Assembly (NCBI GenBank): GCA_024643645.1
Contig: JAHEMN010000003.1
Location: 1,409 to 65,408, forward strand
Length of the DNA stretch: 64,000 bases
Source: Chitinophagaceae bacterium
GTDB lineage: Bacteria > Bacteroidota > Bacteroidia > Chitinophagales > Chitinophagaceae
Direction: 5' to 3'
Position 1 is the first letter of the stretch, and each line of letters starts with the position of its first letter. The notes beneath the pieces are model-generated. The model did not search any database. It had not been told where the DNA came from and worked only from the letters and a program-made list of their open reading frames with translations. Shown piece after piece: positions 17,771 through 62,722 of this stretch. The translations under genes and the position numbers were made by a program.

Positions 17771-17773
17771 TTC

Positions 17774-24107: not shown

Positions 24108-24115
24108 TCTCTGTT

Positions 24116-26272: not shown

Positions 26273-26287
26273 TAAAATCAACCTATA

Positions 26288-26467
26288 ATGAAATTTATTA
26301 ATTATATCGAAAAAGTAAGTGGGGTTGATATCATGGGTTTACTATCCCTTTTGATCTTCTTTTTATTTTTTGTAGTAATGCTCATTTGGGTGTTTAAAAC
26401 AAAGAAAAAAGATTTTAATGATGTAAGCCGTATACCATTAGATAATCAGAATTCAACTAACCTGTAA
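26288..26467 (+). CDS. ccoQ: cbb3 oxidase subunit CcoQ (59 aa, absent from ORF track)
   Basis: Hand translation MKFINYIEKVSGVDIMGLLSLLIFFLFFVVMLIWVF...IPLD; stop overlaps ccoP start (TAATG). Confidence 0.88.
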   Translation: MKFINYIEKVSGVDIMGLLSLLIFFLFFVVMLIWVFKTKKKDFNDVSRIPLDNQNSTNL

Positions 26468-27648: not shown

Positions 27649-27672
27649 GCAATTAAGAGATGAAAAGAAAAA

Positions 27673-29109: not shown

Positions 29110-29121
29110 TAAAAATAAATT

Positions 29122-33051: not shown

Positions 33052-33084
33052 TTTAATTTATTTGAAAAGTTTATTAAGAATTTT

Positions 33085-33750
33085 TTATCTGCCGCTTACT
33101 TTTTCCTTACTCTCAGCCCAAACATTAATTGAACCATTTCCTCCAAGCATTGATTTAGGCACTTCCACTACCAGGCCCAGCACATTCGTACCGGCAAAAG
33201 TGTCATTACCTGTTTCATTAAACGAAGCTGCTGTACCACCAATGATCTGACTATAACGAACAAAATCAAAGAAGAATGGATCATCACGGGGTCCTGCAAA
33301 GACCTTAACGCCTTTCTGCTCACCTATTATAGCTGGTTGTCCATAAGGTGTAATATCAACTTGTGCTGTAAAATTGTTGATGCCTAAATAACTTGTTGTA
33401 CCAGGTTCATTAGGTTTAAACGGACCATACACTTTCATTTTACCATTTTTGGCTACGCACTGAATAACCAGATCTTCAACAGCATCACCATTATTATCAA
33501 TGTTAAATTCGATCATTGTGTTTTCATCAAATTTTGCATTGGCTGTTGCATCCGGAGAAAGTAATCCCTGTGTGTTTGCAACAAAAACTATGTTATCGGT
33601 ATTCTGTCCACGAAAAACATAAACATCCGTTATATCAGAAGCCTGACCTGTAACAGCCGGCGCATCAATGTGATCTGCCGCCATTAAAATACTGCCGGAA
33701 ACTATTATAATACCCGCAGCTAATGAAAGCAGTAATTTTTTCTTTTTCAT
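33085..33750 (-). CDS. DUF4331 family secreted protein (N-terminal part)
   Basis: AADHIDAP, DITDVYVF, FAGPRDDPFFFD, DTFAGTNV. Confidence 0.85.
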   Translation of the reverse strand: MKKKKLLLSLAAGIIIVSGSILMAADHIDAPAVTGQASDITDVYVFRGQNTDNIVFVANTQGLLSPDATANAKFDENTMIEFNIDNNGDAVEDLVIQCVAKNGKMKVYGPFKPNEPGTTSYLGINNFTAQVDITPYGQPAIIGEQKGVKVFAGPRDDPFFFDFVRYSQIIGGTAASFNETGNDTFAGTNVLGLVVEVPKSMLGGNGSINVWAESKEKVSGR

Positions 33751-39677: not shown

Positions 39678-42600
39678 ATGGTTAAAGACGAACTACGTAT
39701 TGCAGAACTTGAAAAATTGTTGGCAGAAAAGACTGCTGCCTTACTGCAACAAGGTGAAGAATTATCTGTTATCAACAGTGTGCAGGAAGCATTGGTAAAA
39801 GAAATGGATATGCAGGCCATCTATGATCTTGTAGGCGATAAAATCAGAGATCTATTTGATGCACAAGCCGTAGTTATTGCCACTTTAGATCATGATACCG
39901 GTACAGAAGAATTTAATTATACGATAGAAGACGGAGAAAGATTTTACCCTGAAAAACGACCCTACAATAAGCTGAGACAAAATCTTATTGAATCAAAAAA
40001 GAAAATTGTCATTAATAACTCTGAAGAAGCCTTTAAATGGTTAGGTAAAGAGGTAGTGCCAGGCACACAATTAATGAAATCCGGAGTATTTGTTCCTTTA
40101 ATTACAAAAGGAAATGTAACTAGCTATATTAGCTTACAAAATGTAGACAAAGAGAATGCATTTAACGACTCCGATATCCGTTTGCTCGAAACTTTAGCTA
40201 ACAGTATGAGTACAGCATTGCAAAATGCACGGCTCTTAAAAGAAACTGAACAACGTACTGCAGAGTTAGCGGTTATAAACAGTGTACAGGAAGCGTTGGC
40301 TACTGAATTAGATATGCAGGCCATTTATGATTTGGTAGGCAACCGCATCCGGGATCTTTTTGATGCGCAGGTGGTGGGAATCGCCACCTTTGACCATGCC
40401 AATGAAATGGAAATAATAAATTACCTGATTGAAAAAGGGGAACGATATAATCCGGTACCAAGGCCTCTGAATATTTTAAGAAAACATCTTATTCAGACTA
40501 AAGAAAAAATTCTTATTAATAAGAATTTTGAGGAAGTGGCTGCCGCATTCGGTGTAAAAAAAGTTCCTGGTACCGAGCAACCTAAATCTGCCTTGTATGT
40601 ACCATTAGTTATTGGTGAAAAGGTAACAGGCAATATTAGCATACAGAATATCGACAGAGAAAATGCTATTAGTGAATCCGATGTAAGACTGATGGAAACT
40701 TTGGCCAATAGTATGGGAGTAGCATTGGAAAACGCAAGGTTATTTGATGAAACGACAAGACTCCTTAAAGAAACAGAACAGCAAAAAGCAGAACTGGGTG
40801 TAATTAATAGCGTACAGGAAGGATTAGCCAAAGAACTGGATATGCAGGCTATCTATGATCTGGTGGGTGATCGTATCAGGGAATTATTCAACGCACAGGC
40901 AGTAGTTATTGCCAACTTTGATCATGATACGGCCACTGAAAGTTTTAAATACATTATAGAGGACAAACAACGGTTTTATCTCGCTTCAAGGCCTTATGAT
41001 AAATTAAGGCAGCACCTGATTATTAATAAACAGAAAATTGTTATCAATTCAAATTACGAAGAAGCGTATGCCAAATTTGGGTTAAAGACATTACCAGGCA
41101 CCAATCCGACAAAATCAGCGGTATTTGTACCATTGATCACGGGTGATAAGGTCAATAGCTATATCAGTTTACAAAACAATGAAATAGAATTTGCATTTAG
41201 TGAATCTGATATACGTCTATTAGAAACTTTAGCTAATAGCATGAGTGTGGCATTGGAAAATGCAAGGCTCTTTGATGAGACTACAAGATTATTAAAAGAA
41301 ACTGAGCAACGTACTGCTGAACTGGCTGTTATCAATAGTGTACAGGAAGGACTGGCAAAAGAACTGGATATACAAGGAATTTATGATCTGGTTGGTAATA
41401 AGATTAGAGATGTATTTGATGCACAAGGTGTGATCATTGCCACTTTCGAACATGAAACAGGAAAAGAAAAATTCAATTACCTGCTTGAAAAAGGTGAACG
41501 GTTCAATGCAGAACCCCGTCGGTATGATAAGCTTCGCTATCAGCTTATCATGACCAAACAGAAAATTTTGATCAATAATAATATGACGGAAGCCTTTAAA
41601 GAGTTTGGCCTAAAAGTGGTCGAAGGAACTGAAATGCCTAAATCTTTACTATTTGTTCCGTTAATTGTTGGTAATAAAGTTACCAGCTATGTTAGTTTAC
41701 AAAATGCAGATAAAGAAGATGCATTTAGTGACTCTGATGTACGTCTTCTTGAAACTTTGGCCAACAGTATGAGTGTGGCATTAGAGAATGCAAGGTTATT
41801 TGATGAAACAAACCGACTACTAAAAGAAACGGAACAGAGAACAGCTGAACTTGCTGTAATAAATAGTGTACAGGATGGATTGGTTCGGGAAATGGATATG
41901 CAGGGCATCTATGACCTGGTTGGTGATAGAGTACAAAAATTATTTAATACACAAGTTGTAATGATCAGCACTTTTGATCTGGAAGAAAAAGTAGAACATT
42001 TTAATTATTTATTTGAAGAAGGCCAGAAAGTTTTCCCCGAACCAAGACCTATAAACAAATTCAGACAATTATTAATAGATAAAAAACAAACTATCTATAT
42101 TTCTACGAAAGCCCAGGCCATCAAAGAATTTGAACTAACAGCAATTGGAGATACAAAATTTCCAAGCTCAATGTTATATGTTCCGCTAATGGCTGGCAGT
42201 ACTATCAGAGGATATGTTAGTCTGCAAAATATAGATTCAGAAAATGCATTTTCAGTGTCAGATATCCGGCTGCTTGAAACATTAGCCAACAGCATGAGTG
42301 TGGCTTTGGAAAATGCCCGTTTATTTGATGAAACAAACCGTTTACTTAAAGAAACAGAAGAAAGAACAGCAGAGTTGGCAGTAATAAACAGTGTACAGGA
42401 TGGATTGGTTCGTGAGATGGATATGCAAGGAATTTATGATCTGGTTGGCGACAGGGTGCAAACCTTGTTTGATGCGCAGGCAGTTGTTATAGGAACTTTT
42501 GATTCGGATTACAAAATTGAAAACTTTAACTATGTTTTTGAAAACGGAGAAAGAGTGAAACTGGAATCAAGACCGGTCAATAAACTCAGGCAATTATTAA

Positions 42601-45600
42601 TTGATAAAAAACATACTGTTTATATAGCAACTGAAGAACAGGCAATAAATGAATATGATTTAAAAGCAGTTGGTGAAACTAAAATGCCGAAATCATTATT
42701 GTTTGTACCGTTAATGACCGGTAGCATTATAAAAGGATATGTCAGCCTGCAGAATATAGATTCAGAAAATGCATTCTCAGAATCAAATATCCGTTTACTT
42801 GAAACATTGGCCAATAGTATGAGTGTGGCATTGGAAAATGCCAGATTATTTGACGAGACCAATCGTTTATTAAAAGAGACTGAGCAACGAACAGCTGAAT
42901 TAGCTGTAATCAATAGTGTGCAGGATGGATTGGCAAAAGAACTGGATATACAGGGTATATATAATTTAGTGGGTGATCGATTATGCGATCTGTTTCCTGA
43001 TACTCAAACACTTGTTATAAGAACATTTGACTATGATACGGGGAATGAACATTTTCAATATGCTATTGAAAAAGGTGAACGAATACAAATAAGTCCACAA
43101 CCATTTATCTGGGCTAATCAACAGCTTATCAGAACAAAAAAACCAATTGATATAGAAGAAAATTATGTACGGGTTTCTCAAAAATTCGGAGGTTCGGGAG
43201 TAACTAAAGGGAAGCCACCTAAATCTGCGGTTTTTGTACCAATGATTGTTGGTGATATAGTAAAAGGCTCTATAAGCCTCCAGAATGTGGACAGGGAAAA
43301 TGCATTTAATGCATCCGATTTGAGATTACTGACCACTATTACAAACAGTATGAGTGTGGCACTTGAAAATGCCCGGTTATTTGATGAAACACACCGTTTA
43401 TTAAAAGAAACTGAGCAACGAACTGCGGAACTGGCTGTTATCAATAGTGTGCAGGATGGATTGGTAAGGGAAATGAATATGCAAGCTATTTATGACCTGG
43501 TGGGAGAACGGATCTGTAAATTATTTGATACACAAACTGTATTGATCCGGACTTTTGACCATCAAAATGAACAGGAAACCTGGCAATATGTGATAGAAAA
43601 AGGAGAAAGGCTTTATAGCAACCCCAGACCGTTTAATTGGGCCAATAAAAAACTAATCAAGGATAAGCAGGCCTTAATGATCAATGAAAATTACCAGGAA
43701 ACAGCGAGAAAATATGGAGGTTCCGGTGTAAGTAAAGGACTGCCACCGAAATCTGCACTATTTATTCCGATGATAGTCGGAGATGTGGTAAGAGGTTCAG
43801 TAAGTCTTCAAAATGTGGAGAAGGAAAATGCATTTACTGAAGACGACCTGAGGTTATTAAGTACACTTACTAATAGTATGAGTGTGGCATTAGAAAATGC
43901 CCGTCTCTTTGATGAATCCAACCGATTGTTGAATGATGCGAAACAAAGAGCCAGCGAATTGGCTACAGTAAATAATATCACACAGGCACTTGCTTCACAA
44001 ATTAACCTGGAAGAACTGATTACTTTGGTTGGCGAAGAGATCAGACAATTGTTTAAAGCAAATATTGTTTATGTTGCTTTACTGGATAAAAAAACAAATA
44101 TCATCAACTTCCCTCACCAATATGGAGATGCAATGGAACCTATGCAATTGGGAGAGGGATTAACTTCCAAGATCATACTTTCCGGTGAACCATTACTTAT
44201 TAATAAAGACATAAAAGATCTACAAGCTCAAATGGGAATCAAAACGGTTGGTATTCCTGCTGCCTCCTATTTAGGTGTTCCTATTTCTGTTGGCGATGAA
44301 AATATCGGAGTACTGAGTGTACAAAGTACTGAACAGGAAAACCGCTTTGGTAAAGACGATCTTCGTTTATTACAAACCATCGCCACTTCTGTTGGTGTAG
44401 CATTAAGAAAGGCAACATTATTTGAAGAAATTCATTTAGCAAAAATGGATGCTGAAGAAGCTAAAAAAACTGCCGAAAGAGCTAATGAAGCTAAAAGCTC
44501 TTTCCTCTCTACGGTAAGTCATGAATTAAGAACACCATTAACTTCAGTATTAGGATTTGCCAAGATCATTAAAAAAAGACTGGAAGAAAAAGTATTTCCA
44601 ATAACCGATAAAACAGATCCGAAAATTGTCAAAACAATCAAACAGATTAAAGATAACCTCGACGTTGTTGTATCAGAAGGGCAGCGACTCACTCATCTGA
44701 TCAATGATGTACTAGACCTTGCAAAAATTGAGGCAGGTAAAATGGAATGGAATAATGAACCGATGTCTGTTCCGGAAATTGCAGAAAGGGCCATTGCTGC
44801 TACTACTGCCCTGTTTGACAATAGTAATCTCAAACTTGTAAAGAATATTAAAAAAGATATTCCTACAATAATGGGTGACAGTGATAAAATGATACAAGTG
44901 ATGGTCAACCTGATCTCTAATGCTGTAAAATTTTCAGTAAAAGGAAAAGTTACCTGTAATGTATATGAGGAAAAAGATGAAGTAATTATCAGTATCGTTG
45001 ATACAGGAATCGGTATTGCACCTGAAGATCATGCTGCAGTTTTTGAACAATTCAAACAGGTTGGTGATACATTGACAGATAAACCAAAAGGTACAGGATT
45101 AGGTCTTCCTATTTGTAAGGAAATTGTAGAACATCATGGAGGACGCATCTGGCTGGAAAGCACATTAGGTGTAGGCAGTACTTTCTTTGTATCACTGCCT
45201 TTAATTAAAACAGAAACTCCAAAAAGACCTATACATCTTGATGATCTTGTTGTTCAATTAAAAGAACAGGTAGCTCATTCAAAATTGAATATTATTGGTT
45301 CTGCAGCTACTATCCTGGTAGTGGATGATGATGAATCTATCCGCTCATTACTCAATCAGGAATTAGGAGAAGCAGGCTATCAGATAGTTGAGGCATCTAA
45401 CGGTAAAGAAGCACTGGAATGTGTTCGGAAACAAAAACCTGATCTGATCATTCTGGATATCATGATGCCTGAAATGAATGGTTTTGATGTGGCTGCTGTT
45501 TTGAAGAATGATCCTTCCACCATGGATATCCCGATCATTGTATTATCAATAGTACAGGATAAAACAAGAGGCTTCCGCATTGGAGTAGACAGGTATCTTA

Positions 45601-45905
45601 CCAAACCAATAGATACCGGATTGCTATTTAATGAGATAGGAAGTTTGCTGGAACAGGGAAAGTCTAAAAAGAAAGTGATGGTGGTTGATCAGGATTCAGC
45701 TACCGTAAATACACTTACAGATGTGTTGAAGACTAAGGGATATGATGTAATGGAATCATCAGGAGATTCGTTGGTTGAAAATGCTGTGGCCAATAAACCT
45801 GATATCATTATTATGAATTCCGTACATTCAGATAAGCAAGAATTAGTAAAAACGCTAAGATTTGAAAAAGGAATGGAAAATGTTCTATTCCTGGTTTATC
45901 AATAA
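39678..45905 (+). CDS. Cytoplasmic hybrid histidine kinase with nine GAF domains and two receivers
   Basis: Nine EL-x-VIN-S/N repeats; SHELRTPL H-box; HATPase; intact REC (LDIMMP) and a second degenerate REC. Confidence 0.93.
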   Translation: MVKDELRIAELEKLLAEKTAALLQQGEELSVINSVQEALVKEMDMQAIYDLVGDKIRDLFDAQAVVIATLDHDTGTEEFNYTIEDGERFYPEKRPYNKLRQNLIESKKKIVINNSEEAFKWLGKEVVPGTQLMKSGVFVPLITKGNVTSYISLQNVDKENAFNDSDIRLLETLANSMSTALQNARLLKETEQRTAELAVINSVQEALATELDMQAIYDLVGNRIRDLFDAQVVGIATFDHANEMEIINYLIEKGERYNPVPRPLNILRKHLIQTKEKILINKNFEEVAAAFGVKKVPGTEQPKSALYVPLVIGEKVTGNISIQNIDRENAISESDVRLMETLANSMGVALENARLFDETTRLLKETEQQKAELGVINSVQEGLAKELDMQAIYDLVGDRIRELFNAQAVVIANFDHDTATESFKYIIEDKQRFYLASRPYDKLRQHLIINKQKIVINSNYEEAYAKFGLKTLPGTNPTKSAVFVPLITGDKVNSYISLQNNEIEFAFSESDIRLLETLANSMSVALENARLFDETTRLLKETEQRTAELAVINSVQEGLAKELDIQGIYDLVGNKIRDVFDAQGVIIATFEHETGKEKFNYLLEKGERFNAEPRRYDKLRYQLIMTKQKILINNNMTEAFKEFGLKVVEGTEMPKSLLFVPLIVGNKVTSYVSLQNADKEDAFSDSDVRLLETLANSMSVALENARLFDETNRLLKETEQRTAELAVINSVQDGLVREMDMQGIYDLVGDRVQKLFNTQVVMISTFDLEEKVEHFNYLFEEGQKVFPEPRPINKFRQLLIDKKQTIYISTKAQAIKEFELTAIGDTKFPSSMLYVPLMAGSTIRGYVSLQNIDSENAFSVSDIRLLETLANSMSVALENARLFDETNRLLKETEERTAELAVINSVQDGLVREMDMQGIYDLVGDRVQTLFDAQAVVIGTFDSDYKIENFNYVFENGERVKLESRPVNKLRQLLIDKKHTVYIATEEQAINEYDLKAVGETKMPKSLLFVPLMTGSIIKGYVSLQNIDSENAFSESNIRLLETLANSMSVALENARLFDETNRLLKETEQRTAELAVINSVQDGLAKELDIQGIYNLVGDRLCDLFPDTQTLVIRTFDYDTGNEHFQYAIEKGERIQISPQPFIWANQQLIRTKKPIDIEENYVRVSQKFGGSGVTKGKPPKSAVFVPMIVGDIVKGSISLQNVDRENAFNASDLRLLTTITNSMSVALENARLFDETHRLLKETEQRTAELAVINSVQDGLVREMNMQAIYDLVGERICKLFDTQTVLIRTFDHQNEQETWQYVIEKGERLYSNPRPFNWANKKLIKDKQALMINENYQETARKYGGSGVSKGLPPKSALFIPMIVGDVVRGSVSLQNVEKENAFTEDDLRLLSTLTNSMSVALENARLFDESNRLLNDAKQRASELATVNNITQALASQINLEELITLVGEEIRQLFKANIVYVALLDKKTNIINFPHQYGDAMEPMQLGEGLTSKIILSGEPLLINKDIKDLQAQMGIKTVGIPAASYLGVPISVGDENIGVLSVQSTEQENRFGKDDLRLLQTIATSVGVALRKATLFEEIHLAKMDAEEAKKTAERANEAKSSFLSTVSHELRTPLTSVLGFAKIIKKRLEEKVFPITDKTDPKIVKTIKQIKDNLDVVVSEGQRLTHLINDVLDLAKIEAGKMEWNNEPMSVPEIAERAIAATTALFDNSNLKLVKNIKKDIPTIMGDSDKMIQVMVNLISNAVKFSVKGKVTCNVYEEKDEVIISIVDTGIGIAPEDHAAVFEQFKQVGDTLTDKPKGTGLGLPICKEIVEHHGGRIWLESTLGVGSTFFVSLPLIKTETPKRPIHLDDLVVQLKEQVAHSKLNIIGSAATILVVDDDESIRSLLNQELGEAGYQIVEASNGKEALECVRKQKPDLIILDIMMPEMNGFDVAAVLKNDPSTMDIPIIVLSIVQDKTRGFRIGVDRYLTKPIDTGLLFNEIGSLLEQGKSKKKVMVVDQDSATVNTLTDVLKTKGYDVMESSGDSLVENAVANKPDIIIMNSVHSDKQELVKTLRFEKGMENVLFLVYQ
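39756..44420 (+). repeat. Intragenic tandem GAF repeats, 9 units
   Basis: Unit starts at 39756, 40260, 40788, 41316, 41844, 42369, 42894, 43425, 43953. Confidence 0.9.
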
Positions 45906-45923: not shown

Positions 45924-46307
45924 ATGGAGAAGAAAATATTAATAGTAGATGACGAAGCACATATCCGAATGCTTATCGAACAAACATTGGAAGAACTGGA
46001 AGATGACGGTGTTGAATTTTTTACTGCTGAGAATGGAGAACAGGCATTGGAATTAATTCAATCAGAAAAACCAAATATGGTTTTCCTGGATGTGATGATG
46101 CCAAAAATGAATGGTATGGAAGTATGCCGGAGGGTTAAACAGGAATTAGGACTTCAGGAGGTTTTCATTATAATACTTACTGCAAAAGGTCAGGAATTAG
46201 ATAAACAAAAAGGCCAGGAAGTTGGTGCGGATGTTTATATGACCAAACCATTTGATCCAGAGGCACTGCTTATAAAGGCCCGTGAAGTATTGGGATTAGA
46301 CGATTAA
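45924..46307 (+). CDS. Single-domain response regulator
   Basis: ILIVDD, LDVMMP, LTAKG, KPF. Confidence 0.93.
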   Translation: MEKKILIVDDEAHIRMLIEQTLEELEDDGVEFFTAENGEQALELIQSEKPNMVFLDVMMPKMNGMEVCRRVKQELGLQEVFIIILTAKGQELDKQKGQEVGADVYMTKPFDPEALLIKAREVLGLDD

Positions 46308-46343: not shown

Positions 46344-48023
46344 ATGGCAAGAGTTAGTTTAAAAAATATTATAGGAAAGAATAAAGAATTCAATTCAGTT
46401 GTAACAGCTTTGATCGAACAATTAAAATTAGATATTTGGATCGAAGATGAAAATGGCAAAGTTGTACTTGGAGATAAAAAAGAAAACAACGACCTGTCTT
46501 TCCCTGTTGAATTGAATGAAGAAATTGCCGGCTACGTAAAAGGTGATGAAAAGGGAGGATCTATCGCTACACTTCTTACCCAACTACTGAATAAAGAAGC
46601 AGAAAAGAAAAAAATGGGTAGTGAAGTTTTGAATCTCTACCAGGAGTTGAACGTTATTTTTAATTTCACGGAAACATTAACACAAACAATTGAACCGGAA
46701 GTAATAGCCCGGTTAACTTTAGAGCAAGCTATCCATTCAGTAGCCTCACAAAGTGGTGTAATTGTTCTTTGGGATGAAGAAACCAAAGAATTACAGATCC
46801 CCGCTTCTTCTGAGGTCTCGTTATTTGATAAAAAAAATATCAATAAAAATGCAGGTTTACTTTTAAGAATTGGTTTAAGTGGCCAATCTGAGATCATGAC
46901 AGATATTTCTGTTTTAAAAGAAAAAGGAATTATTGATGAAAGTGTACAATCAATAATATATGCCGCTATGAAAGTGAAGCATCGTATCATGGGTGCTATC
47001 ATTCTTGCCGGTAACAGTGCGGATCAATTTTCAGCCGGTCATCTTAAACTCTTAGTTACACTTGCACTTCAATCTTCAGCAGCTATCGAGAGTGCTATGC
47101 TTTTTGAAAAGAATATCAGGGAAGTAAAAGAAAGAGAAGAAGCAGTATTACGTTTACACGAGGTGACCAAAAAATTTGTTCCCAATGAATTCATCCGTTC
47201 ACTTGGAAAAGATGTTTTGACTGATGTAAAACTGGGAGACCTTGCTGAAAAGATCGTTACTGTTCTATTTACAGATATCCGGGATTTCACCACTCTATCA
47301 GAGATGATGACACCCGAAGAAAATTTCCGGTTTGTATCTTCTTTCAATGCAAGATTGGGACCGATCATTCGTTCGCATAATGGATTTATCAATCAATACC
47401 TCGGAGATTCTATCATGGCAATTTTTCCTGAAAATGCAAAAGATGCATTGCTAGCTGCCATTGATATGCAAAAAGCAGTACAAACTTTAAATGAAGAAAG
47501 AAGTAAAACCGGATTACCTGCTATAAAAGCCGGCATCGGTATGCATACCGGACCACTCATTATGGGCATTACGGGTGATGAGCAAAGAATGGATGCCTGT
47601 ACTATTTCTGATACTGTAAATACTGCTGCCAGGATCGAGAGCCTGACAAAACATTATAAGTCTCCACTCCTTTTGAGTGAAGAGACTTTCAAAGAAATAA
47701 AAGATCAGGAAAATTTCCATATCCGTCACCTGGGGTCAGTACGGTTAAAAGGAAAAAATAAATTATTGAATATCATCGAATGCATTGATGGTATTTCTCA
47801 ATCAGAGTTTGATAACAAAATGAAGACCTTACCGGTTTTCACTGAAGCAATGAATTGCTACAATGAACAGCAATTTGAAAAAGCTATCAATCTGTTTCAG
47901 TCAATCATTGAAACTGATCCGCATGATCTGACCGTTATGCATTTTATGTTCAATGCCAATAAATATCTCCGGGATGGTGTTCCTGAAAACTGGAAAGGAG
48001 CCGAAGAAATGCTGCAAAAATAA
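46344..48023 (+). CDS. GAF + class III nucleotidyl cyclase
   Basis: FTDIRDFT, QYLGDSIM, TISDTVNTAAR; central GAF-like segment. Confidence 0.92.
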   Translation: MARVSLKNIIGKNKEFNSVVTALIEQLKLDIWIEDENGKVVLGDKKENNDLSFPVELNEEIAGYVKGDEKGGSIATLLTQLLNKEAEKKKMGSEVLNLYQELNVIFNFTETLTQTIEPEVIARLTLEQAIHSVASQSGVIVLWDEETKELQIPASSEVSLFDKKNINKNAGLLLRIGLSGQSEIMTDISVLKEKGIIDESVQSIIYAAMKVKHRIMGAIILAGNSADQFSAGHLKLLVTLALQSSAAIESAMLFEKNIREVKEREEAVLRLHEVTKKFVPNEFIRSLGKDVLTDVKLGDLAEKIVTVLFTDIRDFTTLSEMMTPEENFRFVSSFNARLGPIIRSHNGFINQYLGDSIMAIFPENAKDALLAAIDMQKAVQTLNEERSKTGLPAIKAGIGMHTGPLIMGITGDEQRMDACTISDTVNTAARIESLTKHYKSPLLLSEETFKEIKDQENFHIRHLGSVRLKGKNKLLNIIECIDGISQSEFDNKMKTLPVFTEAMNCYNEQQFEKAINLFQSIIETDPHDLTVMHFMFNANKYLRDGVPENWKGAEEMLQK

Positions 48024-51142: not shown

Positions 51143-52609
51143 CTAATGTTTGTGTCTTCTCTTAATAATACCACCCGAAGCTTCCTTGATTGTATTGGCA
51201 AATATGAATGCTTTCGGATCAACATCATGCACCAGGTTATTTAATTTTCTTAATTCGAGCCTGGAAATAACAGTAAAGATTATATCACAATCAGTACTTA
51301 CTTCAAATTTACCTGGCAGGAATCCCCTCTCCCCTTTATAAACAGTGATACCCCGTCCTAATTTATTTACCAGTTCATATTTAATTGCTTCACTTTCACC
51401 AGAGATAATTGTAACACCTGTATGAGCCTGCAAGCCTTCAACAACATAATCAATACTTCTGGTGGCAGCAAAATAAGTAAGTATAGAATACAATGCAGTT
51501 TCGACACCGAATTTCAAAGCAGCAATAGTGAAAATAAATATATTGATACCCATTATTATTTCAGTAATAGTAAATGAAGTTCGCTTTAATGTATATAAGG
51601 CAAACACTTCAATACCATCCAAAGCTGTTCCCGCCCTCATCACTAATCCGACTCCTGTTCCGAGAAACACTCCTCCGAAAATTGAAATCAGTAATTTGTC
51701 TTTTGTTAATGCATAATCAGGAACAAGTATTAATGCAACTCCCAATAAAATAACACTCAGGAACATTTTCAATGCAAATTCCTTTCCTACCGAAAAATAA
51801 CTAATAATGATCAATGGTAAATTGAATAAGACAATAACGATCGCCAGATTGAAATGATATAATTCATGCACAAGCAGTGATAAACCTGTTACTCCTCCAT
51901 CAAAAAAATGATTAGGAACCAAAAATGCTTTTAATGCAAAACTTGCAAGAACTACACCTACCAAAATAAAAACTGAATCCTGAATCAATTCTGTTAAAGG
52001 AGCTTTGTGACTGGTTGTATGAATGTTTTTAATAGAAGCTTTAATTCGGCGAAGCACAGCTTGCTTTTCTTCTTCCCTTTCTTTTTTTGCAGTTTCCGTA
52101 AAATAAGTATGCGTAGCCAGGAAATCCGCTTGTTTGATCTGCCACTCCGCTTTTGTTCTTACAAAACCTGTTTTTTTAAACTCCAGGTATAAATTATCTG
52201 CATAAGACTGGTATTGTTCTGTACCGAGGTAATACAAATCCGCATCACATAAATATTTTCCCAATTCTTCTTTTGGCGTTTGTGGCAGTCTTGTTGCCAT
52301 TATCATACTACAGATAAGTTCTATCTGCTCTTCGTTATATTCATAATCAGGTAAATATTTTCTGGCAAACTTACAGGAAAGCTCTTCATGCTTCTGATGG
52401 TTTTCTAAAAAACCTGTATCATGAAATAGTGCAGCAGTCTTTAAAAGCACTTTATCTTTTTCAGCAACATTTTCAACATTTGCCAGATGAGAGGCGGCAG
52501 CAATTACATACTTTGTATGTTTCGCATTATGGTAAGTGAGCCAGGAGGGTAGCTCATTTTCCAATTTTGACATAATAAATGTATATACCTTATCGTATTG
52601 CATAGCCAT
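51143..52609 (-). CDS. HD-domain phosphohydrolase fused to YitT (DUF161 x2 + DUF2179) membrane protein
   Basis: YHNAKHT, AALFHDTG, LCDADL in the first 200 aa; FDGGVTGLS and LGRGITVYKG in the C-terminal half. Confidence 0.85.
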   Translation of the reverse strand: MAMQYDKVYTFIMSKLENELPSWLTYHNAKHTKYVIAAASHLANVENVAEKDKVLLKTAALFHDTGFLENHQKHEELSCKFARKYLPDYEYNEEQIELICSMIMATRLPQTPKEELGKYLCDADLYYLGTEQYQSYADNLYLEFKKTGFVRTKAEWQIKQADFLATHTYFTETAKKEREEEKQAVLRRIKASIKNIHTTSHKAPLTELIQDSVFILVGVVLASFALKAFLVPNHFFDGGVTGLSLLVHELYHFNLAIVIVLFNLPLIIISYFSVGKEFALKMFLSVILLGVALILVPDYALTKDKLLISIFGGVFLGTGVGLVMRAGTALDGIEVFALYTLKRTSFTITEIIMGINIFIFTIAALKFGVETALYSILTYFAATRSIDYVVEGLQAHTGVTIISGESEAIKYELVNKLGRGITVYKGERGFLPGKFEVSTDCDIIFTVISRLELRKLNNLVHDVDPKAFIFANTIKEASGGIIKRRHKH

Positions 52610-52631: not shown

Positions 52632-53675
52632 TTAATCCATCACTTCATATATCGTTACAGGATTTGTTTTATTCTTTAAACTAACATCACCCACTTTTGA
52701 ACATTTAAATGATTCCTTAATTTTTTCGTATGAATTGTCATTAATGATGATCTGACCCGGGTTTGCAACAGTTTGTAATCGTTGTGCCACATTCACCACA
52801 TCACCAATAACGGTATAATCTAAACGACGGAGATTAGCAGAACCAATATTTCCTGAGATCATTTCTCCGCTGTTTATTCCTATTGAAACTTTGGGTGTAA
52901 ATGAAACATTATCTGATAAAGTTGGAAGTGCTTCAATTTGTGCCCTTACTGCAAGACAGGCATCAACAGCCCTGTCCAAATGATAATCACCACGAAAAAC
53001 AGCCATGATCGCATCACCGATAAACTTATCAATATAACCCTCTTGTGCTATTATTTCTTTTACGATCACATCAAAGTAATTATTTAGTAGTTTAACAACA
53101 TTATCGGCGGTTTCCTTTTCACTGATGGAAGTAAAGCTACATATATCAATAAATGCGACTGTCGCTTCAATTGTTTCATTGGCCGACAAAGAAGTTTCAA
53201 ATTCACGGCTACCCATAAAATTTAATACCGTTTCATCCACATACATCTTCAGAATATTATTCTCTTTGATCGCAGCCATTGTTTCCCGCATTTGCCTGAC
53301 ATGCTTCAATGTTTTTTCCATCGTTAATTCCAGGTCTTCAAAATTTACCGGCTTGGTAATAAAATCAAAAGCACCTCTGTTCATGGCTGTACGAAGATTT
53401 TCCATATCACCATAGGCTGATACAATTACAGATTTCAGTAAACTATTTTGCTCACTTAGTTTTGTCAATAATGTAAGGCCATCCATCTCAGGCATATTAA
53501 TATCACTCAGGATCACATCCACATCTTCATGAAGTTCTAATTGCTCTAATGCATGCTTTCCATTTACAGCGAAAATAAATTCATATTTATTCTCCCGTAT
53601 CTTCTGCCTGAATTTTTGTTTGATCAATACTTCCAGATCCGTTTCATCATCTACCACTAATATTTTTGCCATCAC
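52632..53675 (-). CDS. REC + class III adenylate cyclase
   Basis: SDINMP receiver; FIDICSFT, DKFIGD, DYTVIGDVVNVAQR. Confidence 0.92.
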   Translation of the reverse strand: MMAKILVVDDETDLEVLIKQKFRQKIRENKYEFIFAVNGKHALEQLELHEDVDVILSDINMPEMDGLTLLTKLSEQNSLLKSVIVSAYGDMENLRTAMNRGAFDFITKPVNFEDLELTMEKTLKHVRQMRETMAAIKENNILKMYVDETVLNFMGSREFETSLSANETIEATVAFIDICSFTSISEKETADNVVKLLNNYFDVIVKEIIAQEGYIDKFIGDAIMAVFRGDYHLDRAVDACLAVRAQIEALPTLSDNVSFTPKVSIGINSGEMISGNIGSANLRRLDYTVIGDVVNVAQRLQTVANPGQIIINDNSYEKIKESFKCSKVGDVSLKNKTNPVTIYEVMD

Positions 53676-54046
53676 TGAATTGATTTTAATTTTTCCTTTA
53701 ATAGTGAAAATTCTACAGGCTTTGTAAGAAAATCATCAGCTCCCAATTTCATTGCTGTTTCATAATTCTCTTTATCACCATAAGCGGTGATCATCATTAC
53801 CCTTGGCGGAGGGGCATTGTATTTTTGTTTTATTTTACCCAACAGGTCCAATCCACTCATACCCGGCATATTGATATCAGAAAGGATCAATACTGCTTCA
53901 TGATTATTCTCATTCAGGTAAACCAGGGCTTCTTCACCGGAAAAAGCAAATACAAAATCAATTTCATTGTTTTTGATCTCCTTCCGAAATCGTTGCTCAA
54001 ATAAAATTTTTACATCCTGTTCATCATCAACTACTAAAATTTTCAT
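53672..54046 (-). CDS. Single-domain response regulator
   Basis: ILVVDD, SDINMP, MITAYG, TKPV. Confidence 0.93.
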   Translation of the reverse strand: MKILVVDDEQDVKILFEQRFRKEIKNNEIDFVFAFSGEEALVYLNENNHEAVLILSDINMPGMSGLDLLGKIKQKYNAPPPRVMMITAYGDKENYETAMKLGADDFLTKPVEFSLLKEKLKSIQ

Positions 54047-54061: not shown

Positions 54062-56092
54062 TTATTTAATTAATTGTATAATAAATTTAGTACCCTCTCC
54101 CTGATGCGATTCTACTATTAAATCTCCTCCGTGAGCTTTAACAATGTCAAAGCTTAAAGATAAGCCTAATCCGGTACCTTTTCCGGTAGGTTTGGTAGTA
54201 AAAAATGGTTGAAATACTTTATCCAGAATTTCTTCAGGAATTCCATTTCCATTATCAATTACTATAATTTCTGCTTTATTTCCATTATTTTTTGTTCGTA
54301 CTGTTACTGTTGGTTCATAATCAGGAATATTTAAACTTTTTTTCTCAGTAACTGCATAAAATGCATTTGTGAACAAATTTAAAATTACTCTGCCAATATC
54401 TTGTGGTATCACATTTACCCCTCCGTTTCCTGACGCCGTGACAGCTAATGATTCATCAAATTCGGTTTTAATAGTGGCATTAAACGATTTATCCTTTGCC
54501 CGTAAACCATGATATGCTAGACGCAAATATTCATCTGCCAATGCATTGATATCTGTCAGTTCTTTTACTCCGTTGCTGCTACGGCTATGCTGCAACATAC
54601 CTTTCACAATAGCATCGGCCCTTTTTCCATGAAAGATTATTTTTTCTTCATTGCTCTTTATATCATTTGCAATAATTTTTGCTTCATTAAAATTTCCCTT
54701 CTCAATCTCCTGTTCCAACTCCTCCGTTAGTTCTTTATTAACTTCTGAAAAGTTATTTACAAAATTTAAGGGATTTTGAATTTCATGAGCAATACCAGCT
54801 GTCAATTCACCAAGGCTTGCCATCTTTTCAGATTGAATAAGTTGTGACTGAGTAGCTTTTAATTCAGCAAGGGTTGATTCAACACTTTGCTTTGCTTTTT
54901 CAAGCTGTATAAAATCTTCATAACGGGCATATGCAATTGAAAATGTATCGGCCAATGAACTTACAATTTCAATTTCTTCATCTGACAGTGGTAATATATC
55001 ACCAACATAGATCATCCCATTTGTAAAAGGGATAAAATGCAGATCCATTTTTTCAGGAGCATTGGCAGCGTCCTGGTATTTTTCTTTATCGTCTATTTGA
55101 CCCTGTTCATACATGGACTGGGTCCAGTTATTAAAATCTGCTTCTTCCCAATGTTCTTTATAGATAGTCTTATTTCTCCAATGCTCAACAACATTGGAAG
55201 TAAGCGAGTTGGCTTCAAAAGATAATTTTAAAACAGCCAGCGAATGTCCATCCGGAGCTGACAGATACACATGTGCAATTTTTTCAATTTCATCGATCAA
55301 AAAAATACCACAACGAAAAAAAGGAACACCAAGAGATTTTAATTCGGACCACAATAATGGAGTGATCTTTTGAAGATCTTCGGTAGATCGCATACTTGCA
55401 ATTTGTCCTCTTACCCTATCCAGCGAAGTTTGTTTTAATGTTTCGTTAGCTTGTGCTTCAGCTTTTTGCAGATCCAAAAAACGGGTATAGATCAAACCAA
55501 AAACCTGTGCAAAACGGATCATCACATTACATTCTTCATTAGAGAGAGCCTGTTTGGATATAACATTTATAGCACCTTCAGAAAAAAAGAATGAATAAAA
55601 ATATTCATTTGGATTGTACACTTGATGTTTCGGCAATGACAAATAGGTTGACATTGTCTGATAATACTGCTTTACGTCATTTCCAGCCAACTCGGTAATC
55701 GCAAAAGGTTTATTTTGCTTTCTTGCGGGAATGATATTTTCATATACCGGATGAATGTGCAGATTAACATAATCCAGAATTCTTACTACCCCCTGGCTAT
55801 CTGAAACGGTGGTAAGCCATATTTCCATGGCATCATTCGCCTCATCAAAAATTCCAACGCCGGTACGTATCGCATTTATTTGGAGATCATTTAATTGTTG
55901 AAATAAAACGGAAGAAGTTTCTGCCAACTCAGAACTTGTACGCATAGCTGTTGCCTTTACCCTTACCTTTTCAAGGGCTGCCTCAATTTCAAGCTTCCTG
56001 TTCTTTTCCTTAATTTCAATATCCAAGTCTGCCAGTTTTTCTTCTAACCCGGCAATCCTTTCATTTAGTTTTTGTTCCTCCTGGTTGTTCAT
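54062..56092 (-). CDS. Cytoplasmic histidine kinase with two GAF-like sensor repeats
   Basis: EAALEKVR and SLDRVR repeats; GELTAGIAHEIQNPLNF; FFTTKPTGKGTGLGL; no hydrophobic helix. Confidence 0.9.
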   Translation of the reverse strand: MNNQEEQKLNERIAGLEEKLADLDIEIKEKNRKLEIEAALEKVRVKATAMRTSSELAETSSVLFQQLNDLQINAIRTGVGIFDEANDAMEIWLTTVSDSQGVVRILDYVNLHIHPVYENIIPARKQNKPFAITELAGNDVKQYYQTMSTYLSLPKHQVYNPNEYFYSFFFSEGAINVISKQALSNEECNVMIRFAQVFGLIYTRFLDLQKAEAQANETLKQTSLDRVRGQIASMRSTEDLQKITPLLWSELKSLGVPFFRCGIFLIDEIEKIAHVYLSAPDGHSLAVLKLSFEANSLTSNVVEHWRNKTIYKEHWEEADFNNWTQSMYEQGQIDDKEKYQDAANAPEKMDLHFIPFTNGMIYVGDILPLSDEEIEIVSSLADTFSIAYARYEDFIQLEKAKQSVESTLAELKATQSQLIQSEKMASLGELTAGIAHEIQNPLNFVNNFSEVNKELTEELEQEIEKGNFNEAKIIANDIKSNEEKIIFHGKRADAIVKGMLQHSRSSNGVKELTDINALADEYLRLAYHGLRAKDKSFNATIKTEFDESLAVTASGNGGVNVIPQDIGRVILNLFTNAFYAVTEKKSLNIPDYEPTVTVRTKNNGNKAEIIVIDNGNGIPEEILDKVFQPFFTTKPTGKGTGLGLSLSFDIVKAHGGDLIVESHQGEGTKFIIQLIK

Positions 56093-56651: not shown

Positions 56652-58694
56652 TTATACATGAAAAATTATTTTAAACTCAGTCCCTTTTCCTTCTTCAGAT
56701 TGTAGTTGTATCTCACCATCATGTGCTTTTATAATATCATAACTCAAACTCAATCCCAAACCAGTTCCCTGCCCTGTTGGCTTGGTAGTAAAAAAAGGTT
56801 GAAATATTTTTTCTTTAACTGTTTCAGGAATTCCATTTCCATTGTCTTTAACTGAAATTTCAATCTTATCATTTATTTTTTTTGTAGATACTGACACTGT
56901 TGGTTCATACTTGTCCACTGAAGCTTTAGCAGAAGAGGATTCGTCGCCCACCGCCGCTAAATCTTTGGTGGACACGGCATAAAAAGCATTATTGATAAGG
57001 TTGAGCAAAACTCTACCAATATCCTGTGATACGATATTGATATTGCCGATACTGTTATCAAAATCGGTTTTCATCCTGGCATTGAATGATTTGTCTTTTG
57101 CTCTTAAACCATGATAACTCAATCGTAAATATTCATCACACAAAGCATTGATATCTGTTGGTTCTTTTTGTCCGTTGTTACTTCTTGAATGTTGTAACAT
57201 CCCTTTTACAATGGCATCAGCTCTTTTGCCATGGAAAATAATTTTTTCTTCATTTTCTTCAACATCTTTTGCGATAGAACTTACTTCATCATAATTTTTC
57301 TTTTCAATTTCTTCTCTCATCTCAGAAAGCATTTCCTTGTTCACTTCTGAAAAATTATTAACGAAATTTAATGGATTTTGAATCTCATGTGCAATACCTG
57401 CAGTGAGCTCACCCAGGCTTGCCATCTTTTCGGATTGAACGAGTTGCGATTGGGTGGATTTTAAATTTATCAATGTGTTTTCCAAAACCTTATTGGCTTT
57501 TTGTTTCTGGCGGTTGTTGCGATATAAGAAAAGTACACCCAATAAAATTATCCCTATCCATGTAAGCATAGCATACATCCTATTCCTGCTTTTTTCCTGT
57601 TCCTTTTCTTTTTCCAGTTCCTGCAATCGTATTTTTTGTTCAAAATCCAGATTCTGAAATTGCATAAGCCTTTCGATATAATTGTTGGCAAGTGTATCTC
57701 CAAGATTTTTACCTTTTTCCAAATAGTCATAAGCAATCGGATATTCTCCTTTCAATTTGTAAATGGTTCCTAGCTGAGCAAAGCCTTGAGCCATACCAAT
57801 TAAATTGTTTGTTGATCCGGCAAGTTTTTGCGCCTGCAATGTATATATCAATGCTGAATCCAACTGGTCCGTTTCAATAAATACATTACCTAATAACCCC
57901 TGGAGATTGCTCATTAATCCTATGGAAGCAGGATCGCTACTTACAGCTATTCCTTTGCGATAATAAAACTTTGCAGAGTCATATTGCCTTTCCTGCGAAT
58001 AATAAAGACCTATCTGTAGATATATATTCCCCAGATTTTTTTGATAAGGAGAATTTTTATAATACAGCAACGCTTTTTTAAAATAAATTAAAGCTGAATC
58101 GGGCTTATTATTATTGAAATAGTAAATGCCTATATCACGGTTTGAAAGACTTAAAATCTTCTGGTTATTCAAACTTTTACCGATCTCTAATGATTTTAAA
58201 ATGTGTTTAAAAGCTTCTTCCTGATTGCGGGTACGATTATAAAAACTATACAATTCAAAATGAATCATTCCAATTATGGACCGGCGGGCTTCTTCGGGGG
58301 TTTTTGAATAAGAAAAATTGGAATACCCCCAGCTGTTGGCAGCACTTGAAGGATCCTCTGCAATTTTTAATGCCTGCATGTAGTTTTCATAGGCTACTGA
58401 TAATCTAAAAATACCCGTATTGCAATAAGCAATTTGCTGATACGCATCAGCTTCCCAAAGTTTTAAATCTAGTTTTTTAGCCAAAGCAAGTTGTGCCTCA
58501 TGGTAAGCCAGGGCTTTACCGGCATCGCTATCCTGGTGATAAAACCCCAGTGTCCTGTTGAGCTCCATACGAACAGTATCGTTTGGAGCATTTTTCAATG
58601 CTGTAAGCAGATTGTCTTTGTAACTTTTTCCATCTTGTGCCTTGGCAAAACCCGGCACTAAAAACAAAAAGAATATTCTTAATACTAACTTCAT
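56652..58694 (-). CDS. TPR-domain membrane histidine kinase 1
   Basis: Signal peptide, TPR-like helices, one TM, GELTAGIAHEIQNPLNF. Confidence 0.92.
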   Translation of the reverse strand: MKLVLRIFFLFLVPGFAKAQDGKSYKDNLLTALKNAPNDTVRMELNRTLGFYHQDSDAGKALAYHEAQLALAKKLDLKLWEADAYQQIAYCNTGIFRLSVAYENYMQALKIAEDPSSAANSWGYSNFSYSKTPEEARRSIIGMIHFELYSFYNRTRNQEEAFKHILKSLEIGKSLNNQKILSLSNRDIGIYYFNNNKPDSALIYFKKALLYYKNSPYQKNLGNIYLQIGLYYSQERQYDSAKFYYRKGIAVSSDPASIGLMSNLQGLLGNVFIETDQLDSALIYTLQAQKLAGSTNNLIGMAQGFAQLGTIYKLKGEYPIAYDYLEKGKNLGDTLANNYIERLMQFQNLDFEQKIRLQELEKEKEQEKSRNRMYAMLTWIGIILLGVLFLYRNNRQKQKANKVLENTLINLKSTQSQLVQSEKMASLGELTAGIAHEIQNPLNFVNNFSEVNKEMLSEMREEIEKKNYDEVSSIAKDVEENEEKIIFHGKRADAIVKGMLQHSRSNNGQKEPTDINALCDEYLRLSYHGLRAKDKSFNARMKTDFDNSIGNINIVSQDIGRVLLNLINNAFYAVSTKDLAAVGDESSSAKASVDKYEPTVSVSTKKINDKIEISVKDNGNGIPETVKEKIFQPFFTTKPTGQGTGLGLSLSYDIIKAHDGEIQLQSEEGKGTEFKIIFHV
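56913..56973. repeat. In-frame REP-like palindrome inside the HATPase coding region
   Basis: GTCCACTGAAGCTTTAGCAG...CCGCTAAATCTTTGGTGGAC, 16/20 inverted match; insertion absent from paralogues. Confidence 0.65.
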
Positions 58695-58700
58695 ACAACT

Positions 58701-60641: not shown

Positions 60642-60652
60642 TTACATCCATT

Positions 60653-62704: not shown

Positions 62705-62722
62705 TACAATAATATTTATTAT

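Follow-up and report, generated by a model that had tools for sequence, protein, structure and literature searches.

Which cyclic nucleotide does the class III cyclase encoded at positions 46344..48023 (+ strand) of this locus make? The initial annotation had described its base-reading pair, Gln and Cys, as guanylate-cyclase-like, and proposed a synthase of cGMP or a non-canonical cNMP next to a cAMP synthase encoded elsewhere in the window (by which we mean the whole 64,000-nucleotide stretch analysed here). To our knowledge, cyclic-nucleotide signalling in Bacteroidota is almost unstudied, and we found no characterised cyclase from this phylum, or from the Gln-type subfamily described below, in the searchable literature.

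The gene opens with ATG and encodes 559 aa plus a stop codon. All 120 closest homologues are co-linear with the protein (118 of them are 559 aa long), and the N-terminus is the same across an alignment of 42 close homologues (consensus MARVSLKNI), which indicates that the start codon is correctly assigned. The chain begins with a small beta-rich domain (approximately aa 1-75, 46344..46568, +) that has no Pfam match; a long helix predicted at aa 71-115 links it to a GAF sensor domain (aa 117-249, 46692..47090, +; PF13185/PF13492 by Pfam), in whose sequence no NKFDE-type cNMP-binding motif is visible. The following helical linker (aa 255-300, 47106..47243, +) carries an F-V-P-x-E-F-I motif, with F278, V279, P280 and F283 invariant in the homologue alignment, and aligns with bPAC linker residues 108-150; we read it as the signal-transducing element before the catalytic domain. 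The latter (aa 304-474, 47253..47765, +) matches PF00211 with an E-value of 4.3e-21 (75.8 bits versus a cut-off of 21.9), and is followed by a three-helix TPR-like tail (aa 484-559, 47793..48020, +). The tail is common to the cyclase subfamily, including Lys/Thr sister domains in other phyla: tblastn matches reach residues 556-559 in cyanobacterial, Chloroflexota, Leptospirales and Thiomargarita loci. In the PDB, 49 cyclases match the protein; in NCBIfam, no family does. An AlphaFold2 model built from the 42 close homologues has a mean pLDDT of 59, with the catalytic domain below 50; it is a monomer model, whereas class III active sites form in a head-to-tail dimer, and our use of it is confined to secondary structure and to the well-predicted stretches in the tail (pLDDT 84-93 for residues 490-540) and near the N-terminus (around 80 for residues 20-90).

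As judged by its residues, the protein is a class III nucleotidyl cyclase with a complete catalytic set: the metal-binding D311 (47274-47276, +) and D355 (47406-47408, +), the transition-state pair of Asn426 (47619-47621, +) and, four residues after it, Arg430 (47631-47633, +), and the phosphate-binding R313 and K469, the latter in K469-G-K471. Gln351 (codon CAA, 47394-47396, +) lies four residues before D355, in NQYLGD, and Cys419 (codon TGT, 47598-47600, +) seven residues before Asn426, in RMDACTISDTVN; both the pair and the intact Asp, Asp, Asn and Arg are therefore as initially annotated. The spacings (40 residues from D311 to Gln351, then +4, +7 and +4 as above) equal those in the RhGC and Cya2 tables published in PMC6005667. 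HMMER alignments place Gln351 on the Glu of Cya2 and Lys197 of bPAC, and Cys419 on the Gly of Cya2 and Thr267 of bPAC. Position -9 from the catalytic Asn is Asp417, aligned with bPAC D265, and the N+3 position, a tyrosine in Cya2, is Ala429. D311, D355, N426, R430, R313 and K469 are invariant or nearly so down to 40% identity.

The description of the pair as guanylate-cyclase-like does not hold. Guanylate cyclases have Glu at the first position, Cys, Ser or Gly at the second, Arg or Lys at -9 in support of the Glu and, in Cya2, Tyr at N+3; here only Cys419 agrees, and it is not conserved, the other positions being Gln351, Asp417 and Ala429. Against the Lys/Thr (class IIIb) adenylate cyclase pattern, the acidic -9 residue is present, but Gln351 stands where Lys would be and Cys419 where Thr, Ser or Asp would be. 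The Rv0386-type pair is approached from one side, with Gln present and Cys (Ala or Thr in relatives) as the second residue. Animal guanylate cyclases reportedly have Arg at -9. Every validated guanylate cyclase cited for comparison has Glu at the first position, the role of which is to contact guanine N1 and N2 (PMC7384201). In the GTP-bound RhGC structure only this Glu contacts guanine, Cys facing away, and the pattern described for guanylate cyclases pairs a fixed first residue with a small second one that varies (PMC7384201); turning bPAC into a guanylate cyclase needed K197E, D265K and T267G (PMC4569695).

When the Gln/Cys pair was surveyed in homologues its two members parted company: Gln proved invariant and Cys rare. 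Gln351 is kept in 119 of the 120 closest homologues, that is, in all where the motif was found, and the 119 with both motifs comprise 113 Q/A and 6 Q/C pairs. For the 150 representatives at 50% identity, a regex tally in which some sequences were spuriously matched more than once gave Q/A 110, Q/T 24 and Q/C 1. Across 185 related Bacteroidota domains (Gln-type hereafter) Gln351 and Asn350 are both invariant (185/185) and position -9 is Asp or Glu in 182, while residue 419 is Ala in 143, Thr in 34, Cys in 4 and Gly in 2; even orthologues within the same three-gene module (see below) have Ala, Thr or Cys there. All Gln-type loci found belong to Bacteroidota. Tail-sharing relatives from nine lineages outside this phylum have K...T, and 30 of 30 Lys-type sister domains (cyanobacteria, Leptospira, Chloroflexota) keep Asp-Lys and Thr, so that D350N and K351Q separate the 185 Gln-type from the 30 Lys-type domains with 100% discrimination, as V420T, G418A and L427T likewise discriminate between the two sets. 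On a tree built without the discriminating columns, position 351 changes four times in all (Q/K/R/D) and position 419 no fewer than 29 times within the Gln-type clade, among A, T, C, G and S, with at least two origins of Cys419, one beside Ala neighbours and one beside Thr neighbours. Judging by these distributions, Gln351 is not a chance substitution, and Cys419 is one of the less frequent residues at a site that varies freely.

The cyclase gene sits behind two others in a three-gene module. A hybrid histidine kinase of 2075 aa (39678..45905, +), with nine GAF domains, HisKA, HATPase_c and a receiver domain identified by Pfam, is followed by a 127-aa single-domain response regulator (45924..46307, +; PF00072, E-value 2.4e-29) with D9/D10, D56, T86 and K108. 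The receiver gene starts 18 nt past the kinase gene and ends 36 nt ahead of the cyclase gene; no terminator-like site was seen on the + strand between the module genes, and a tandem-repeat scan found no DNA-level repeats in the kinase gene. The order kinase-receiver-cyclase is kept in 21/21 full-length orthologous loci, with the receiver 67-87% identical across loci, which is above the conservation of the cyclase. The gene on the other side of the cyclase encodes a LiaF-like protein, and over the same 21 loci the downstream genes are not conserved, save for an HD/Cap15-like pair in three. Other Bacteroidota proteins carry the Gln-type domain after HisKA-HATPase-REC in one chain, a fusion that supports control of the cyclase by a receiver; the signal would run from kinase to receiver to cyclase.

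The module lies in a conserved two-cyclase island. The second cyclase of the island, a receiver-cyclase fusion at 52632..53675 (-), is indeed canonical Lys/Thr (D177, K217, D221, T288, N295, R299), and 4.6 kb separate it from the Gln-type gene. Related loci have its orthologues, at 71-82% identity, in the same island, and the two-cyclase neighbourhood recurs in loci L004 and L093. Upstream of it are a receiver (53672-54046, -) and a histidine kinase (54062-56092, -), the second two-component input of the island. Of the initially proposed cGMP or non-canonical cNMP synthase beside a cAMP synthase, the non-canonical site, the intact catalytic residues and the nearby Lys/Thr cyclase stand, whereas the guanylate-cyclase-like pair falls away. 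Directly downstream of the receiver-cyclase, as assigned by Pfam and synteny, is a gene (51143..52609, -) whose product joins an HD phosphohydrolase domain to a YitT 5-TM membrane domain and DUF2179 and may both degrade cNMPs and act as a membrane effector; by synteny it occupies the slot of an S-2TM-beta (Cap15-like) gene in related genomes, and comparison of the HD protein with the PDB returned only spurious repeat-protein matches. In related loci, nearly identical S-2TM-beta genes adjoin either a Gln-type or a Lys/Thr cyclase (84% between L083 and L085, 88% between L004 and L099), and a related HD gene (51-70% identical) is found with both arrangements. The presence of S-2TM-beta and HD genes beside either cyclase type would fit one shared messenger, an argument that weighs little since both cyclases often occur in one island. 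The only CNB protein in the window (8457-9512) has Asp where the phosphate-binding Arg is expected and is uninformative as a cNMP receptor; near Gln-type cyclases, CNB proteins were seen in only two Flagellimonas loci, in an RSA-type cassette 6-8 kb off, too far away to be informative.

The reading that we favour, with a probability of roughly 0.55, is that the protein is a soluble, competent, GAF-regulated Gln-type class III cyclase acting as the output of the module, with cAMP as its most likely product and maybe some GTP side activity; the same figure covers, jointly, the view that the subfamily, confined to Bacteroidota among the genomes sampled, descended from Lys/Thr (class IIIb-like) adenylate cyclases. 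The purine pocket would have been rebuilt as a block, with Asp-Lys becoming Asn-Gln, the next Val becoming Thr and the Leu after the catalytic Asn becoming Thr, and in it Thr419 would have given way to a small variable residue (Ala >> Thr > Cys, Gly, Ser). The Gln351 amide alone would read the Watson-Crick edge of the purine, donating to N1 and accepting from N6 of adenine, with the retained acidic Asp417 holding the amide in orientation. Because Gln351 would read the base by itself, residue 419 would be dispensable and hence free to drift, which would make Cys419 a neutral variant and not a guanine determinant. The resulting cAMP would join that made by the neighbouring Lys/Thr receiver-cyclase in one messenger pool. 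By analogy, Rv0386 may serve as a precedent for a Gln-type adenylate cyclase with guanylate cyclase side activity.

Several observations count against the cAMP reading. An invariant first and a variable small second residue are also the guanylate cyclase pattern, Cya2, the top sequence match in the PDB, is itself a guanylate cyclase, and the pocket has gained polarity (N350, Q351, T420, T427), a change that could serve guanine just as well. By flipping, as happens in phosphodiesterases, the amide of a Gln is able to recognise guanine. Sequence alone cannot tell which product is made, and synthesis of cGMP is a possible, if less likely, reading.

Since Gln is able to hydrogen-bond either purine edge, the enzyme could be a dual-specificity purine cyclase in which the Gln351 amide switches and cAMP and cGMP are made in comparable amounts. 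The side activity of Rv0386 (Gln/Asn) and the rank of Cya2 as the top PDB match both point this way, and the lost constraint at position 419 fits recognition by Gln alone. However, the conserved Asp417, Asn350, Thr420 and Thr427 suggest an amide fixed in one orientation, and the window showed no cGMP-specific receptor, its sole CNB domain being the one that lacks the phosphate-binding Arg; we consider this alternative unlikely. Extended to the whole Bacteroidota subfamily, so that the Asn-Gln pocket confers a different or dual preference (cGMP, or cAMP plus cGMP by amide switch) and the island runs two messengers, the idea seems to us quite doubtful. If true, it would mean that cGMP signalling is widespread in Bacteroidota and has so far escaped notice; HD phosphohydrolases and Cap15-like or YitT membrane proteins might then be its readers.

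A dedicated guanylate cyclase would likewise give the island two messengers, with the Lys/Thr receiver-cyclase supplying cAMP and the Gln-type enzyme cGMP, and the side-by-side occurrence of both cyclase types in L004 and L093 is consistent with such a division of labour. Cys419 is the residue of animal and fungal guanylate cyclases, DTVNTAARIES resembles guanylate cyclase motifs, a small variable second residue is guanylate-cyclase-like, and Cya2 again is the best PDB sequence match. Yet the key position lacks Glu, Cys occurs in only 6/119 orthologues with Thr being common, Asp takes the place of Arg or Lys at -9 and Ala that of Tyr at N+3, and the sister lineage is canonical Lys/Thr, all of which renders a dedicated guanylate cyclase improbable.

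It is highly improbable that the protein is a defence-type (Pycsar-like) cyclase making a pyrimidine or other non-purine product, or one acting on a membrane-disrupting effector. PADLOC PycC profiles do match (E-value 3e-20), and the cyclase gene of related loci precedes one for a Cap15-like 2TM beta-barrel, of a family of known abortive-infection effectors. However, the profile matches are generic and the canonical Lys/Thr neighbour scores better (3.4e-23), no effector gene adjoins the Gln-type cyclase in the window (its neighbours code for the receiver and the LiaF-like protein, whereas a Pycsar operon of two genes pairs PycC with a cNMP-activated effector), the same effector also adjoins the Lys/Thr cyclase, and the gene belongs to a two-component signalling operon conserved across families; we therefore do not assign it to Pycsar. 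Just as improbable is a catalytically weak or inactive pseudo-cyclase, a mere scaffold for the kinase-receiver pair: the base-contacting lysine is missing, but all residues that bind metal, ribose or phosphate stay invariant down to 40% identity, which is unexpected in a dead enzyme.

Most likely, then, the enzyme is an active cyclase of an uncharacterised Gln-type subfamily. Of the 150 nearest clusters at 50% identity, more than 140 are of the Gln-type domain, and its pattern matches in species-level genomes number in the hundreds; the domain is a common Bacteroidota signalling output, often fused behind hybrid two-component sensors. Once known, the product of the Gln-reading pocket would supply an annotation rule for all such proteins, test the reach of the two-residue class III specificity rule and reveal if a cyclase can do without the lysine altogether. 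The case also calls for caution: a lone residue of guanylate cyclase type, seen in one protein, counts as a specificity signature only where orthologues retain it.

Among known systems, Rv0386 of M. tuberculosis (Gln/Asn) is the sole characterised class III cyclase known to us with Gln at the Lys position, and is reportedly an adenylate cyclase whose guanylate cyclase side activity depends on the amide pair. The likeness, drawn here by residue pair and from description only, ends at Gln: the second residue of Rv0386 is Asn (Cys, Ala or Thr here), its architecture is cyclase-ATPase-LuxR, and it comes from another phylum. Its adenylate cyclase activity with a guanylate cyclase side activity is echoed in bioRxiv 10.1101/2024.03.06.583649. 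The best-scoring solved relative, the Synechocystis guanylate cyclase Cya2 (PDB 2W01, E-value 4.9e-20), shares with the Gln-type cyclase the small second specificity residue and an Arg two residues past the first metal Asp; Cya2 has Glu, a supporting Lys at -9 and Tyr at N+3 where the Gln-type cyclase has Gln, Asp and Ala, and its input is CHASE2/membrane, not GAF. Animal and fungal guanylate cyclases (sGC, RhGC; Glu-Arg-Cys) share the Cys at the second position and the DTVNTA-x-R-x-ES motif, but here Gln replaces Glu, Asp replaces Arg, and the Cys is not kept among Gln-type orthologues. Anabaena CyaB1 and CyaB2 are GAF-regulated adenylate cyclases with GAF N-terminal to the class III catalytic domain; compared with these, our protein has a single GAF without the NKFDE motif, no PAS domain, and Gln for Lys. 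The Lys/Thr class IIIb-type adenylate cyclases (bPAC/BlaC, OaPAC, P. aeruginosa CyaB, Arthrospira CyaC) have the same fold and catalytic Asp/Asp/Asn/Arg, and share the F-x-P transducer helix and the acidic -9 residue. Relative to them the Gln-type cyclase has Asn-Gln for Asp-Lys, Ala, Thr or Cys for Thr, Thr for the next Val and Thr for Leu at N+1, and is without the lysine implicated in binding adenine and, in class IIIb, also bicarbonate. The GAF-cyclase-tail sister proteins of Leptospira, cyanobacteria and Chloroflexota have the same architecture as the Gln-type cyclase, at 36-43% identity.

The open reading frame at 46344-48023 on the forward strand is real and encodes a 559-residue protein in which Pfam places a GAF domain (residues 117-249), a class III cyclase catalytic domain (PF00211, residues 304-474, E 4.3e-21; 75.8 bits, cut-off 21.9) and, by a weak match, helical repeats in the tail. 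The gene model is sound, since all 120 of the nearest proteins in the database are co-linear with it, 118 of them likewise 559 residues long, and the aligned close homologues share its N-terminus. The residues for metal binding (D311, D355), for ribose and the transition state (N426, R430) and for phosphate (R313, K469) are intact. The two base-specifying positions are Gln351, within NQYLGD and four residues ahead of D355, and Cys419, within RMDACTISDTVN and seven residues ahead of N426. In HMMER alignments to solved structures, Gln351 takes the place of bPAC Lys197 and of the Glu in Cya2, a guanylate cyclase, and Cys419 that of bPAC Thr267 and the Cya2 Gly; the motif spacings agree with those tabulated for RhGC and Cya2 (PMC6005667). 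A structure model of the protein was too poor in quality for use. The initial annotation had thus correctly read a Gln/Cys pair in an intact active site, and the canonical Lys/Thr pair that it assigned to the second cyclase, a receiver-cyclase fusion at 52632-53675 on the reverse strand, is also present (K217 and T288).

What did not hold up is the description of the Gln/Cys pair as guanylate-cyclase-like. In published work, adenylate cyclases carry Lys and guanylate cyclases Glu at the first position, Asp/Thr is set against Cys/Ser/Gly at the second, and two residues ahead of the second an acidic or neutral residue is set against Arg/Lys. Cya2 combines Glu, a supporting Lys, Gly and Tyr (PMC6005667, PMC4215837), and conversion of bPAC to a guanylate cyclase needed K197E, D265K and T267G (PMC4569695). 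The cyclase studied here has Gln, Asp417 and Cys419, and Ala429 where Cya2 has its Tyr, leaving Cys419 as the sole guanylate cyclase marker, and the weakest one: in the GTP-bound RhGC structure guanine is contacted by Glu alone, the Cys points away, and the second position is called poorly conserved (PMC7384201). An acidic residue nine positions ahead of the catalytic Asn, as Asp417 is, occurs in 182 of 185 members of the Gln-type clade (related Bacteroidota cyclase domains with Gln at the Lys position), and would be expected to prefer adenine, with its N6 amino group, to guanine, with its O6 carbonyl.

Nor is Cys419 kept by orthologues, as the homologue survey proposed in the initial annotation makes clear. 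All 120 closest homologues share at least 69% identity with the cyclase, the few with a named source being Chitinophagaceae MAGs; in the 119 whose motif could be located, the first position is invariably Gln, while at the second Ala (113) far outnumbers Cys (6). Against 1.84 billion cluster representatives, the catalytic region had 4,187 matches below 1e-30; among the best 150, with motifs extracted by regular expressions and some spurious multiple matches included, we counted Q/A 110, Q/T 24, Q/C 1 and only a handful of K/T pairs. A scan of species-level genomes yielded over 600 pattern matches; from these at most 80 loci were drawn and 79 kept, a sample biased towards the Gln-type by one of the two patterns being Gln-specific; all Gln-type domains among them belong to Bacteroidota (Chitinophagaceae, Saprospiraceae, Cyclobacteriaceae, Flavobacteriaceae, Pedobacter). 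Related domains from cyanobacteria, Leptospira and other spirochaetes, Chloroflexota, Thermodesulfobacteriota and Thiomargarita share 36-43% identity, in many cases through the C-terminal tail, and all have K-Y/F-I-G-D and T-V-I-S/A-D-x-V-N, the canonical Lys/Thr set. Rare residues at the Gln position are Arg (locus L019, with Asn at the second position, and protein P0256) and Asp (P0241). One Saprospiraceae domain (L060) has a Lys/Thr pair with other Gln-type features (NTASR, Asp at -9) and may be a transitional form. Three proteins (P0121, P0122, P0123) carry two or three Lys/Thr sister domains per chain; P0121, the sole one of them scanned, also has TPR and PAS domains.

We aligned 185 Gln-type domains with 30 of these Lys/Thr (Lys-type) sisters. 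The groups are separated completely by Asp350->Asn and Lys351->Gln, and Val420->Thr, Gly418->Ala, Leu427->Thr and Val/Ile480->Cys set them apart as well, so the pocket was rebuilt as a block. Position 419 is Thr in 30/30 Lys-type domains versus A143/T34/C4/G2 in the 185 of Gln-type. On a neighbour-joining tree, a simple distance tree with the discriminating columns left out, position 351 needs only 4 changes overall and position 419 at least 29 inside the Gln-type clade alone, which makes the glutamine the hallmark of the subfamily. Cys419 arose twice independently, in the window's cyclase (nearest neighbours Ala) and in a group with a Hanamia MAG (nearest neighbours Thr). Residue 419 is free of constraint, Cys being one neutral state, and the specificity site is non-canonical, strongly selected and of glutamine type, not a guanylate cyclase signature. 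Cys480 (47781-47783), at the end of the catalytic domain, is shared by 177/185 Gln-type domains; every Lys-type sister has Val/Ile. We found no description or assay of the Gln-type subfamily in the literature and no NCBIfam model for it; databases call its proteins only "adenylate/guanylate cyclase domain-containing protein".

The cyclase is the last gene of a module that begins with a 2075-residue hybrid histidine kinase (39678-45905, forward strand) with nine consecutive GAF domains, between which a ETEQRTAELAVINSVQ...ENARLFDET linker recurs; the repeats are at protein level only, no tandem repeat being found in the DNA of the kinase gene. A 127-residue single-domain receiver follows, then the cyclase; the intergenic gaps measure 18 and 36 nt, and a terminator-like site was found in neither. 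This order is kept in 21/21 full-length orthologous loci, which range from Chitinophagaceae to Algoriphagus, Pedobacter and Flavobacteriaceae MAGs, with the receiver more conserved (67-87% identity) than the cyclase (39-74%). In other Bacteroidota proteins the Gln-type domain directly follows HisKA-HATPase-REC, in sensors whose inputs are beta-propeller/Y_Y_Y or TPR domains, which supports a scheme in which the phosphorylated receiver would control the catalytic domain. The cyclase's helical linker, in which F-V-P-x-E-F aligns to the bPAC linker, presumably relays the signal from the GAF domain and the receiver.

More broadly, the region forms a signalling island, with a LiaF-like protein, a DUF4288 protein, a LytS/LytTR pair and, on the opposite strand, a kinase, a receiver, the Lys/Thr receiver-cyclase and, directly downstream of it, a fusion of HD phosphohydrolase, five-helix YitT and DUF2179 (51143-52609, reverse strand), a candidate cyclic nucleotide phosphodiesterase or effector. 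The fusion occupies the slot of a Cap15-like gene in related genomes. In three related genome loci (L004:9701-10969, L008:4303-5569, L010:9699-10961) the Gln-type cyclase is followed by two same-strand genes: a 196-residue HD phosphohydrolase, which shares 40-43% identity with the HD portion of the fusion, and a 210-residue protein that combines two transmembrane helices with a beta-barrel of the Cap15 cyclic-nucleotide-receptor type (PF18153, E 3.7e-11; E 0.001 against Cap15, PDB 7N34). The latter's family, S-2TM-beta, includes CBASS Cap15 and Panoptes OptE (PMC12657218). A metagenome scan with this protein gave 24 loci; the Cap15-like gene lies directly after a Gln-type cyclase in 3 (L080, L081, L083) and beside a Lys/Thr receiver-cyclase orthologue, same-strand downstream or tail to tail, in 12, two of which (L090, L093) also have an HD gene upstream of LiaF. 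L093, with part of a Gln-type cyclase ahead of that HD gene, repeats the window's gene order except that the Cap15-like gene stands in for HD-YitT; L086 has that order from LiaF onwards. At 18 related loci (L004, L008, L010; L080-L099) a Cap15-like gene, often with the 196-residue HD gene, adjoins one or the other cyclase type. We found no literature description of a class III cyclase coupled to this effector family. These arrangements define a two-cyclase island that is conserved and includes candidates for a hydrolase and for a membrane receptor. The receptor-like proteins beside the two cyclase types, up to 84-88% identical, mildly favour one common messenger; this falls short of proof, since the two cyclases often share an island.

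Elsewhere in the window, a PAS histidine kinase and a REC-cNMP_binding-HTH_Crp regulator (8457-10747, reverse strand) adjoin the nos cluster; with Asp for the conserved Arg of its phosphate-binding cassette, the regulator is probably not a cyclic nucleotide receptor. The nitrous-oxide reductase cluster (12106-21297: NosZ-like propeller protein, fasciclin protein, NosL, NosD, ABC ATPase, permease), with two ScdA/hemerythrin genes and an Rrf2 regulator at its flanks, is followed by a cbb3-type oxidase cluster (21437-30272: fused CcoN-CcoO (COX1+FixO, 718 residues), FixP, FixG, FixH, a DsbD_2 protein and a P-type ATPase). Four tandem histidine kinases occupy 56652-63955 (reverse strand), three of them paralogous TPR-HisKA-HATPase proteins of 646-683 residues. 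Two adjacent in-frame ORFs (32470-33750, reverse strand) divide a DUF4331 profile between them; each has a signal-peptide-like N-terminus of its own and two stop codons lie between the two, which suggests a natural division into two genes, not a frameshift.

As to the main product, cAMP is the likeliest, with a probability of roughly 0.55. Dual purine specificity is unlikely; a mainly cGMP product, for which Cys419 speaks and against which Gln351 and Asp417 do, is more doubtful still. We give very little credence to a pyrimidine or defence-type enzyme, which the Cap15-like neighbours in related loci might bring to mind, or to an inactive one, its pocket non-canonical but its catalytic residues intact. 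To our knowledge, the only characterised enzyme with Gln at the Lys position is M. tuberculosis Rv0386 (Gln/Asn), which Castro et al. reportedly found in 2005 to be an adenylate cyclase with a guanylate cyclase side activity of about one fifth. The dependence of Rv0386 on its Gln-Asn pair is echoed in a preprint (bioRxiv 10.1101/2024.03.06.583649).
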